Shown piece after piece: positions 47,289-50,340 of a stretch of DNA of 64,000 nt. The stretch covers positions 896,001 to 960,000 of the forward strand of contig JBDRZU010000001.1 in the NCBI GenBank assembly GCA_039804105.1, in the 5' to 3' direction. Source of the DNA: a candidate division WOR-3 bacterium. GTDB taxonomy: Bacteria; Hydrothermota; 32-111. Both the position numbers and the translations under genes were made by a program. A model generated the notes under the pieces. It searched no databases, had not been told where the DNA came from, and saw only the letters and a list, made by a program, of their open reading frames with translations. The first letter of the stretch is position 1. The number at the start of each line of letters is the position of its first letter.

Positions 47289-49184
47289 TTATTTAACTGT
47301 GACAATCTTCTTTGTGAAACTGTTGACACCATCGTTAACTTTCACAAAGTAAACACCTTGTTTGAGATTAAGATTGAGCGAGTGTGTTCCTTTTGCGAAG
47401 AATTTTTTAACTTTGTTTACAACTCTACCTGTTGCATCATAAACTGATATTTCAACATTCCTTCCTTCACTCATAACAAAACTTATTGCTCCATTCTTGC
47501 TGAATGAGGAAATATTGTAAACATTTTTATTAACTTTTGAAGAAATTTCTGAATTAATTCCCCATACAGTTGTTCCAAGTTCTTCCCAAACAATTGTTGG
47601 ATCGTTTATATCAACTGATGCATAATATATTGAATCCTGTGAACCAGAAACACCTGCTATGTGTATTAATCCATTTTCGTCAACATATTTACCACATTCA
47701 ACTTCATAAAGTCCTGCATTTAATATAATTGTTGATCTATAAACTTTATCTGTAACAGGATCAAGTTTCAACGCTTCAACTGATGTTCCACCAAATGCTG
47801 GATCAACATAATCAAGGTAAACTATATACATATTATCTGTTGCTTCATCATAGCAGAGGTTTGCACTGTATGCATTTCCTCTCCATGTTGCTGTTGTTCC
47901 TGTATTATCCAAAATATCACCATCATGTATATCTATATAGTCGTATCTAAAGTTTGTTTCACCATCAAATTTATATCCAAAAAGAATTGACTGACCCTGC
48001 CATATGAATGTATAGAGATCACCTGATTCATAATAGTCAACAAAAAGATCAGCCATTGGCACAACATAAGCCATCACACCTGTACCTCTTTCTGGATAGA
48101 ATTCAGCATCCCACCAGTACCACCATGTTCCAAATCCATCTCCAAGTGGTTGTCCAAGTTCATCTGTCCATCCACCTGTTGCAACATCAAGATATGCTTT
48201 AACAGCAAATGCATCGTTTGTTGTATTTGCTGTAGTATCAAGATTATAAATTACTGTATCACCATTTAGTGTATTGACATTTGGCCAGATGTTTCCATCA
48301 AAAAGTCCATAGAAAGCATCCCATGTAACACCAAGATCTGTTGTCTTTGCATAACCTGGAACTATGGCTGAACCAGGACCTGATGGATAAATGTCTGACC
48401 TTGTTTCATCTTTCCACACCATTCCAAAAATACCATGAACATCATCGTTGTTTCCCCATCTTATTGCTGAAACATCTATATCCCAGAGAGTATCATTGTT
48501 AAGTGTTGCTGGCCAATCGTATGTTCCCCATGTTGCACCGTAATCTGTTGAGTAGTTTGAACCAAATCCACCCATCGCATCATAAGCGATCATTACAACT
48601 TTGTCTCCATCAGGATTAACTGCTATTGATGGCATATAAGCCACATAATTTGCTGTATCTGTCACAAGTATTGGTGCACTCCATCCACCACCATTTGCTC
48701 CAAGAAGATCTGCTGTGAACCAATCACCCCAATATGCTGAGGTTCTATAGTTTACTATAACATATGGTGCTTCACCTAATGCTGCAACTGATGCCATTTC
48801 GTTATAGTTTCTTGCAAATGGACCTGATGCTGTTATCAGTGTTGGAGTTGACCATGTTGAACCACCATCTGTTGTTGCTGTATAATAAACACCTCTAAAA
48901 GCACCACCATTATACCAACCGGTAACAACCTGTATTATCTGTCCATCTTTTGATGAAACAATACTCTGAAGTGGTGTTGGAGCAAATCCTCTCATATCAC
49001 CACCAAGTTCAAGTATTCCCTTCATACCTGCTGCCTGTGCATTGGCATCTTTTGTTTCGAAGAATTTACCATCCTGTGAAACTTTTGTGACCTGTTTTAT
49101 CTTTGCAAGTGCATCATTTGCTGGCATTGCAAACAATGAAAATGCAAATGCCAATACAAAGAGAAGAACAAAAATTCTCTTCAT
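47289..49184 (-). CDS. T9SS-sorted protein with BNR/Asp-box motifs
   Basis: Asp-boxes TTDGGSTW, STDYGATW, TTDLGVTW; CTD ISVYDATGRVV...QGVYFVKV...KKIVTVK. Confidence 0.85.
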   Translation of the reverse strand: MKRIFVLLFVLAFAFSLFAMPANDALAKIKQVTKVSQDGKFFETKDANAQAAGMKGILELGGDMRGFAPTPLQSIVSSKDGQIIQVVTGWYNGGAFRGVYYTATTDGGSTWSTPTLITASGPFARNYNEMASVAALGEAPYVIVNYRTSAYWGDWFTADLLGANGGGWSAPILVTDTANYVAYMPSIAVNPDGDKVVMIAYDAMGGFGSNYSTDYGATWGTYDWPATLNNDTLWDIDVSAIRWGNNDDVHGIFGMVWKDETRSDIYPSGPGSAIVPGYAKTTDLGVTWDAFYGLFDGNIWPNVNTLNGDTVIYNLDTTANTTNDAFAVKAYLDVATGGWTDELGQPLGDGFGTWWYWWDAEFYPERGTGVMAYVVPMADLFVDYYESGDLYTFIWQGQSILFGYKFDGETNFRYDYIDIHDGDILDNTGTTATWRGNAYSANLCYDEATDNMYIVYLDYVDPAFGGTSVEALKLDPVTDKVYRSTIILNAGLYEVECGKYVDENGLIHIAGVSGSQDSIYYASVDINDPTIVWEELGTTVWGINSEISSKVNKNVYNISSFSKNGAISFVMSEGRNVEISVYDATGRVVNKVKKFFAKGTHSLNLNLKQGVYFVKVNDGVNSFTKKIVTVK

Positions 49185-49261
49185 TTTACCTCCTATCTTT
49201 AAGGTTTCTTTTTTTCGTGAGAAGAACCATCTCTTTTTAATTTTTCCTCCTTTTATTTATT

Positions 49262-49290
49262 ATTTTAGAATCAAGTTAAAAAAAAGTCAA
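49262..49290 (-). promoter_or_regulatory. promoter of the surface-protein locus
   Basis: TTGACT-17nt-TAAAAT. Confidence 0.6.
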
Positions 49291-49299
49291 TAGTTTTTT

Positions 49300-49373
49300 T
49301 ACACCCGAAAGGATTTGAACCTTCAACCTGCGGAACCGGAATCCGCTGCTCTATCCAGTTGAGCTACGGGTGT
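49300..49373 (-). tRNA. tRNA-Arg(CCG), CCA not encoded
   Basis: ACACCCG TA GCTC..GAGC A GCGGA-TT-CCG-GT-TCCGC...GGTTCAAATCC..CGGGTGT A. Confidence 0.95.
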
Positions 49374-49465
49374 CATTTTTTCTTCTTATGACGCATCGCT
49401 TTTCTTCTTTTTTTTCTTTTATGAGTTGCTATTTTTTTTCTTTTTCTCTTTCTTCCACAGGGCAT
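49373..49465 (-). CDS. 30S ribosomal protein bS22 (AURKAIP1/COX24, mS38-like), 30 aa
   Basis: AAGGAGG-TATAA-ATG, translating as MPCGRKRKRKKIATHKRKKRRKAMRHKKKK*. Closely matches the Bacteroidota bS22 pattern (MP.G.KRKR.K.ATHKRKKR....RHKKK). Below the ORF-track length cutoff. Confidence 0.9.
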   Translation of the reverse strand: MPCGRKRKRKKIATHKRKKRRKAMRHKKKK

Positions 49466-49475
49466 TTATACCTCC

Positions 49476-49784
49476 TTATCTTTTTTCAACTTTCTCCTTT
49501 AATATTTTTGATGGTTTAAAAGCAGGAACATATCTTTCTGGAACCTCAACCTGTGCTCCAGTTTTTGGATGTCTTGCAATTCTCTGTCTTCTCTTCTTTG
49601 TTTTAAAAACCCCAAGGCCCCTTATCTCGATTCTATCTCTGTTAACAAGTGTTTCAGTTATTAGATCTATCAATGTTTCAAAACAGATTTCAACATCCCT
49701 TCTCATAACCCCTGTTCTTTCAGCAATCTGATCTATCACATCCGCTTTTGTTTTGGTTTTTGCCTTATCTTTTACTTCAGCCAT
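49476..49784 (-). CDS. HU/IHF family DNA-binding protein
   Basis: Motifs TKADVI, IEIRGLGVF, ARHPKTG, VPAFKPS. Confidence 0.93.
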   Translation of the reverse strand: MAEVKDKAKTKTKADVIDQIAERTGVMRRDVEICFETLIDLITETLVNRDRIEIRGLGVFKTKKRRQRIARHPKTGAQVEVPERYVPAFKPSKILKEKVEKR

Positions 49785-49842
49785 ACTTCCCCCTTTTTGT
49801 TAATATTATCAATTGATTTTTAAAAGTCAAGTTTTTATATCA

Positions 49843-50340
49843 TTAAAATTCTTTTCTTATTCTATCTATAAAGTTTTTCAAATTCATCACTACAAGAGAA
49901 TCTTTACATTCTTCTTCAGAAAATGTTGTTGAAAAAATTTTTTCAGTTAAAATGTTTTCTCTAAGATTAGAAATCTGGTATTCTGTGGCCAAAGAATACT
50001 TATAACTTTTTATGTTTCCATCATCGTTGTATTCATACACTTTTTTTGAATAATCTTTAATAGTAATGTTTAAACTATCATTTTCTTTCGTCTGAACAAT
50101 TTTTACATTTGCATAAACTGGAAAGATTTCAAAGATCTTGTTGTAAAATTTTTCTTCAAAATCAAGATAGTAAGTTCTGTTTTCTATTTTTTCCAAAACA
50201 ATTTTATCAAAAGGCAAACTTCCTTTTACAAACGAATAGATGCAACCTTCTACACTAATCAGAAATAGTATAGTTATTAAAAAGATACCTTTTGATTTTT
50301 TTCGTTGTTGTTTTAGGAAATTCTTCATATCTAATATCAA
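49843..50340 (-). CDS. LptE-like lipoprotein
   Basis: Lipobox-like VEGC followed by YSF.KGSL...I....ENRT...E, typical of FCB LptE. Start uncertain; overlaps the upstream gene. Confidence 0.6.
   Translation of the reverse strand: MILDMKNFLKQQRKKSKGIFLITILFLISVEGCIYSFVKGSLPFDKIVLEKIENRTYYLDFEEKFYNKIFEIFPVYANVKIVQTKENDSLNITIKDYSKKVYEYNDDGNIKSYKYSLATEYQISNLRENILTEKIFSTTFSEEECKDSLVVMNLKNFIDRIRKEF

Follow-up and report, generated by a model that had tools for sequence, protein, structure and literature searches.

In the genome of a candidate division WOR-3 bacterium, the gene for the 30-aa ribosomal protein bS22 ends inside a tRNA gene, the last letter of its stop codon being also the first nucleotide of tRNA-Arg(CCG). 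This 1-nt overlap is probably a tolerated by-product of genome packing, in which the RNase P cut would leave a message ending in AAA-UG that tmRNA-SmpB and exonucleases would clear without repair. The features of the junction within the window (the whole stretch of 64,000 nt that was analysed) were the following:

49803..49830, minus strand, likely sigma-70 promoter for the joint transcript of HU, bS22 and the tRNA (TTGACT-16-TAATAT with a TG extension, by match to the consensus)
49476..49784, minus strand, HU/IHF-family DNA-binding protein, 102 aa (PF00216, E 1.6e-28)
49471..49476, minus strand, bS22 Shine-Dalgarno (AGGAGG), which overlaps the stop codon of HU (read from the sequence)
49373..49465, minus strand, bS22, a ribosomal protein of 30 aa (identified by a profile that matches bS22 chains of known structure; 243 of the 271 genomes of the phylum have an orthologue)
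49373..49375, minus strand, bS22 stop codon TGA, whose A (49373) is tRNA nucleotide 1
49300..49373, minus strand, tRNA-Arg(CCG), sole copy among 41 called tRNAs, with A1-U72, A20 and A73, CCA not encoded (ARAGORN, Rfam RF00005)
49262..49290, minus strand, promoter-like TTGACT-17-TAAAAT, 10 nt beyond the tRNA and likely serving the following gene (consensus; TTGAC box in the family alignment rows)

The genes follow one another on the minus strand in the order HU/IHF-family gene, bS22 and tRNA-Arg(CCG), and this tandem, already read in the preliminary description, was upheld by the PF00216 match for HU/IHF and the profile match for bS22. The bS22 ORF (49465..49373, minus strand) has 30 codons and closes with AAA TGA. 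Its final letter, A (49373), is common to the TGA (49375-49373, minus strand) and to nucleotide 1 of the tRNA. Both ARAGORN and Rfam RF00005 placed the tRNA at 49373..49300 on the minus strand, in agreement with the end of the ORF, confirming that the overlap first described is real. A wrong tRNA boundary was ruled out by the concurrence of the two programs and by the G at -1, which cannot pair with A73. Recoding of TGA was not indicated, as this codon terminates 624 of the 1543 crude gene calls.

The bS22 start is preceded, at 5 nt, by a strong AGGAGG. A profile of 15 WOR-3 orthologues (query included) matched solved bS22 chains from end to end, namely 7jil_5 (E 5.9e-12, residues 1-30), 8fmw_V and 9i5v_10; these chains are the bS22 of Flavobacterium and Borrelia and, for 9i5v, an AURKAIP1/COX24-domain chain. 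A chance ORF was ruled out by this end-to-end match together with the orthologues, and the 30-aa protein is, from its profile match, bS22. None of the Pfam (including PF08213, COX24_C) or NCBIfam models matched it; PF08213 passed its cut-off in only one of 14 control genomes, indicating that the model is insensitive. The protein had been called unannotated, which is too strong a word: the family models cover it poorly, but its exact sequence is already in NCBI, nr, UniRef and JGI and has thus been called. The bS22 proteins of Flavobacterium johnsoniae and Borrelia burgdorferi (PDB 7jil and 8fmw; PMC7797042, PMC10618245) are likewise described, in the passages devoted to them, as Lys/Arg-rich, of 28-30 aa, with one motif from end to end, and as easy for annotation to miss; those passages do not mention a neighbouring tRNA. 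Both are chains of solved ribosomes, whereas the WOR-3 protein is likened to them by sequence. As a bS22 it would be expected to sit in the h44/h45 pocket of the 30S subunit.

The tRNA-Arg(CCG) has a full cloverleaf, a CCG anticodon, an acceptor stem of seven Watson-Crick pairs (ACACCCG/CGGGTGT), discriminator A73, and A20, which we take to be an identity element of tRNA-Arg. Its RF00005 match reached 65.4 bits over model positions 1-71. Only nine of the 41 tRNAs of the genome encode CCA. The CGG codon makes up 202 of 574,568 codons, or ~1% of the Arg codons, in the crude gene calls of this genome, suggesting that the demand for this tRNA is small.

HU, bS22 and tRNA-Arg(CCG) are likely co-transcribed. 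HU is preceded by a TTGAC-type site in 11 of the 13 family genomes, and no promoter-like site within 60 nt of tRNA-Arg passed our scan in the five genus genomes, all of which carry the overlap; promoter-like sites scoring at least 9/12 accompany 23 of the 41 tRNAs of this genome. Since no promoter was found between bS22 and the tRNA, the latter is likely cut from the HU-bS22-tRNA transcript, and the RNase P cut would then likely leave a non-stop message ending in AAA-UG. No terminator-like site was found within 48300-50200, including the region after the tRNA. The closest named relative of HU is labelled candidate division WOR-3. The next gene after the tRNA (49184-47289, minus strand) codes for a protein of 631 aa with a Por secretion tail and is the likely owner of the promoter at 49290-49262, whose TTGAC box, ~10 nt 3' of tRNA-Arg, is kept within the family. 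Throughout the genome, 18 of the 41 tRNAs are followed within 40 nt by the start of a gene on the same strand (by crude calls; the gap is negative in three, probably from mis-set starts), and many of these tRNAs are directly followed by a Shine-Dalgarno, with no space for a terminator.

The genome, whose 85% completeness sets the scope of every gene absence given here, carries RNase P RNA and RNase P protein, tmRNA and SmpB, and PNPase. No ArfA match was found in this 85%-complete genome, nor was ArfB, there being only two RF-1-family genes in it. An NFACT_N/RqcH-like gene (G000:C1:1259336-1259680), barely over its Pfam cut-off, is a possible second rescue route.

We propose that bS22 would be translated from the uncut transcript, with normal termination, for many rounds per message. 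A terminating ribosome would cover the first tRNA nucleotides, so that translation and RNase P would be mutually exclusive there. Standing at the stop codon, it would occupy the tRNA from nucleotide 1 to ~8, with the acceptor stem melted, and RNase P would be able to cut only between ribosomes, as would also be the case with spacers of a few bases. A single cut would free the tRNA and close the useful life of the message, as for E. coli secG, whose stop codon stays intact: the secG mRNA, which retains 14 nt past its stop once RNase P has cut it, is described as gone in less than 30 s, in a source whose pertinent passages name RNase P as the primary separator of secG and leuU (PMC2241853). Because the cut would doom the message anyway, the added cost of the overlap would be the rescue of a few ribosomes on a 93-nt ORF. 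These stranded ribosomes would be cleared by trans-translation, the clearing of stalled ribosomes being presented as a normal tmRNA task (PMC3985003, in part). At so low a cost, shrinking spacers would give rise to overlaps again and again, each borrowing whatever stop the tRNA offers: TG[A1], TA[G1], TAG at 8-10, or a D-loop stop.

To follow the junction in relatives, 139 genomes were examined from the best-scoring listed bS22 matches, a sample that leans to query-like sequences; bS22 itself was matched in 243 of the 271 phylum genomes. In 42 of the 139, bS22 was followed by tRNA-Arg(CCG), counting one genome (G002) whose contig ends inside the tRNA, and no tRNA was found 3' of bS22 in the other 97, within 66-1497 nt of downstream DNA. 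The gap between the two genes in the 42 genomes was -1 in nine, 0 in six, 1-10 in 15 and 31-144 in 12, so that it was 10 nt or less in 30 pairs. ARAGORN added one base per end in some relatives, for which +1 was reset by stem pairing, moving some gaps by 1. All five genomes of the genus carry the overlap as TG[A1], and the remaining four overlaps, from two other families, read TA[G1]. On a tree of HU and bS22 (41 rows; G024 was left out, having no HU in its locus) these two groups were split by supported branches that hold spacer rows, indicating at least two origins. A1-U72 was found with a 1-nt spacer in G008 and G1-U72 in other spacer-bearing family members; A1 is therefore best read as a stem repair, which would have made a TGA available. 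When one genome per species was scanned with a pattern blind to long spacers and other tRNAs, 21 loci came up, 19 of which were known junctions and two new, with 16- and 5-nt spacers. Against tolerated packing stand the fixation of the overlap in the five genus genomes, its at least two origins, and the short gaps of 30 of the 42 pairs.

The loci without the tRNA (L099-L165, several families) often have a next gene that starts at or beside the bS22 stop, with an actual overlap of stop and start in 20 of the 97 genomes (crude calls); the starts of many of these next genes resemble that of a metallophosphoesterase. In G269 (L159:350-500, minus strand), an apparent relic of the 5' part of the ancestral tRNA-Arg lies at gap 0 after the bS22 stop, and a different tRNA-Arg(CCG) lies 76 nt downstream, an apparent tRNA replacement.

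Four more long same-strand genes enter tRNAs in this genome, bringing the count to 5 of 41 tRNAs with tRNA-Arg(CCG):

G000:C1:190597-191247 (L187), pcm into tRNA-Pro(CGG), -10 nt
G000:C1:326773-327285 (L188), tadA into tRNA-Ser(CGA), -24 nt
G000:C2:125094-125855 (L189), gene of 253 aa into tRNA-Gly(CCC), -21 nt; conserved, no family match
G000:C2:211985-212593 (L190), rdgB into tRNA-Pro(TGG), -10 nt

Short ORFs (<80 aa) that enter tRNAs, bS22 excepted, were set aside as likely chance. Two further tRNAs, tRNA-Ala(TGC) and tRNA-Glu(TTC), follow genes at 0 and 1 nt. The overlap of rdgB with tRNA-Pro(TGG) was found in 23 of 24 adjacent cases from seven WOR-3 families, at -10, -24 or -45; these comprise 16 of 16 class loci and seven of eight further tRNA-bearing loci (25 examined; relatives L209-L224 and L315-L338). 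The tRNA letters encode the tail of the protein, GA or RGVAQPG, and the Ham1 domain of RdgB spans residues 6-193 of 202, so that one nonsense change in the tail beyond this domain would suffice for a private stop. For pcm and tRNA-Pro(CGG) the overlap was present in 12 of 26 tRNA-bearing loci (46 loci examined), for tadA and tRNA-Ser(CGA) in eight of 10, and for the 253-aa gene and tRNA-Gly(CCC) in five of 12; sister genera differ in whether these three genes overlap the tRNA or keep a spacer. In the open-access literature searched, neither the bS22 nor the rdgB overlap of WOR-3 was found described.

Overlaps between genes are as frequent in this genome. By a crude ORF caller it is 95% coding; among 1299 pairs of genes on one strand, 46% overlap, and the gap has a median of 1 nt. 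In a comparison that rests on two genomes (30 best-scoring loci each) and on kin that are not independent, G021 (bS22 gap -1) had three overlaps among 18 scorable tRNAs and G188 (bS22 gap +68) had none among 22. Outside the phylum, the rdgB loci of three genomes centred on G271 contained no tRNA. One overlap candidate was observed among the 19 scorable tRNAs of G271 and G272, too few for a baseline; it is a putative 184-codon frame of G272 (L394) that runs 43 nt into tRNA-Glu(TTC).

The overlaps in rdgB, pcm, tadA and the 253-aa gene invite the reading that several WOR-3 families keep gene ends in tRNAs under lineage-wide selection, with the maturation of the tRNA switching off the message upstream of it, and with bS22 as the latest recruit. 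We regard this as unlikely, though it is the alternative that fares best, and none of the five overlapped tRNAs has a promoter consensus above 8/12 in this genome. In such a bacterial form of tRNA punctuation, rdgB, pcm, tadA and bS22 would borrow their stops from co-transcribed tRNAs and RNase P would act as a programmed switch yielding tmRNA substrates, selected across seven families, which we hold to be doubtful to the same degree: pcm, tadA and the 253-aa gene flip between overlap and spacer, the five proteins have no common pathway, each stop is the first that the tRNA offers in that frame, and overlaps between genes are equally frequent. The retention in rdgB (23/24, seven families, three stop positions) nevertheless suggests more than drift alone clearly predicts. 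It is rdgB, not bS22, that makes the better case and leaves room for lineage-wide selection, its overlap having lasted over much of the phylum while changing frame.

A link specific to bS22, by which the overlap would couple its output to the processing of tRNA-Arg(CCG), was proposed in the preliminary description, where spacers in relatives were named as evidence to the contrary. Such spacers (0-144 nt) separate the two genes in 33 of the 42 genomes of the same order, and 97 of the 139 genomes have no tRNA there, so that we now find the coupling improbable. The order HU-bS22-tRNA is old (42 WOR-3 genomes, plus the two loci with 16- and 5-nt spacers), and the overlap evolved at least twice. 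The predicted cut would fall between G-1 and A+1, each found in only two of the 41 tRNAs of the genome, a context that, speculatively, could slow the RNase P cut. Against the coupling, unrelated genes overlap tRNAs more deeply and more persistently. Codon-sensing feedback on bS22 was discarded, since its sequence has no CGG codon for tRNA-Arg(CCG) to sense.

It is equally improbable that the overlap never matters, the tRNA being matured from already decaying fragments, or from a start site missed by the consensus scan, so that no non-stop message would be translated. The very low demand for tRNA-Arg(CCG) would suit this, heavy translation would hold the stem open, and in three family genomes with 5-10 nt spacers a 9/12 site whose first base is non-canonical lies close to the tRNA. 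In the genus, by contrast, none of the five genomes, all with the overlap, has a passing site within 60 nt of the tRNA, and RNase P's role as primary separator at secG/leuU (PMC2241853, in the passages cited above) argues against it as well.

In animal mitochondria, tRNA punctuation leaves stop codons that are completed by poly(A), and PNPase, present here, is able to add A-rich tails. The preliminary description had likened the junction to this system and offered repair of the message to UGA by A-tailing; the likeness stands insofar as the tRNA abuts the gene and its predicted excision would leave a partial stop, but no poly(A) polymerase I (pcnB, TIGR01942) passed the cut-off in this 85%-complete genome. 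Its two PolyA_pol proteins reach 64-73 bits against a pcnB cut-off of 305.65 and, by their motifs, resemble a split pair of CC-adding (with HD domain) and A-adding tRNA enzymes. These two tRNA nucleotidyltransferases, one with an HD domain, are encoded at G000:C1:839033-840403 and C2:240380-241315. Although an added A would turn UG into UGA and, in the second overlap group, UA into UAA, any 1-nt overlap can be completed by an A, which makes the fit automatic, the overlaps of 10-45 nt, including the four of 10-24 nt in this genome, are beyond mending by A-tailing, and bacterial tails are described as promoting decay (PMC2241853, in part), which makes such repair the least credible of the alternatives, at a very low probability. 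In contrast to mitochondria, for which gene-tRNA overlaps are mentioned in a passage of PMC8124441, the WOR-3 genome has trans-translation.

Among bacteria, the closest published idea is that of selB-selC in Alpha- and Gammaproteobacteria and Nitrospirae, proposed on bioinformatic evidence (Mukai 2021, PMC8124441, as far as its pertinent sections go). There, as at bS22/tRNA-Arg(CCG), the stop of a bacterial protein gene lies within or past a tRNA of the same strand, a non-stop mRNA is the proposed outcome of processing, and close relatives regain a private stop. In selB-selC, however, all or half of the tRNA is nested, the protein binds the tRNA, and the genomes are large (same sections), whereas our junction has a 1-nt overlap, no evident functional link, a compact genome, and four other genes alike. 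E. coli secG-leuU also has mRNA and tRNA on one transcript, where one RNase P cut dooms the upstream message, but secG keeps its stop and 14 nt, and the bS22 cut would fall inside the stop codon (PMC2241853, in part). By analogy, the bS22 junction would work like secG-leuU taken one step further and would fit the non-stop model of selB-selC (PMC8124441, in part).

The arfA gene of E. coli likewise has a cut inside the ORF that makes a non-stop mRNA, which for bS22 is predicted, and the arfA product is tmRNA-tagged; ArfA acts as a rescue factor, and its level is a readout of tmRNA activity (PMC3985003, in the parts concerned), whereas bS22 is a structural ribosomal protein whose overlap is not conserved. 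The product here is bS22, without an ArfA match, rather than a rescue factor active when tagging fails, and the cut site is shared by nine of the 42 pairs, or nine of the 139 genomes. The bS22 junction fails the tests for both mitochondrial poly(A) repair and ArfA-type regulation. Its parts are a bS22 and an ordinary tRNA-Arg. Both a coupling specific to bS22 and repair by A-tailing are unlikely.

Taken singly, the bS22-tRNA junction is a curiosity. The five junctions together show that conserved housekeeping genes with their stop codons inside tRNAs can persist in a cellular bacterium. The natural spacer series of one gene pair (-1, 0, 1, 2, 5, 10 and 30-70 nt) makes the competition between translation and RNase P testable, as well as the amount of non-stop message that is tolerated, and gene-tRNA overlaps are not always annotation errors.
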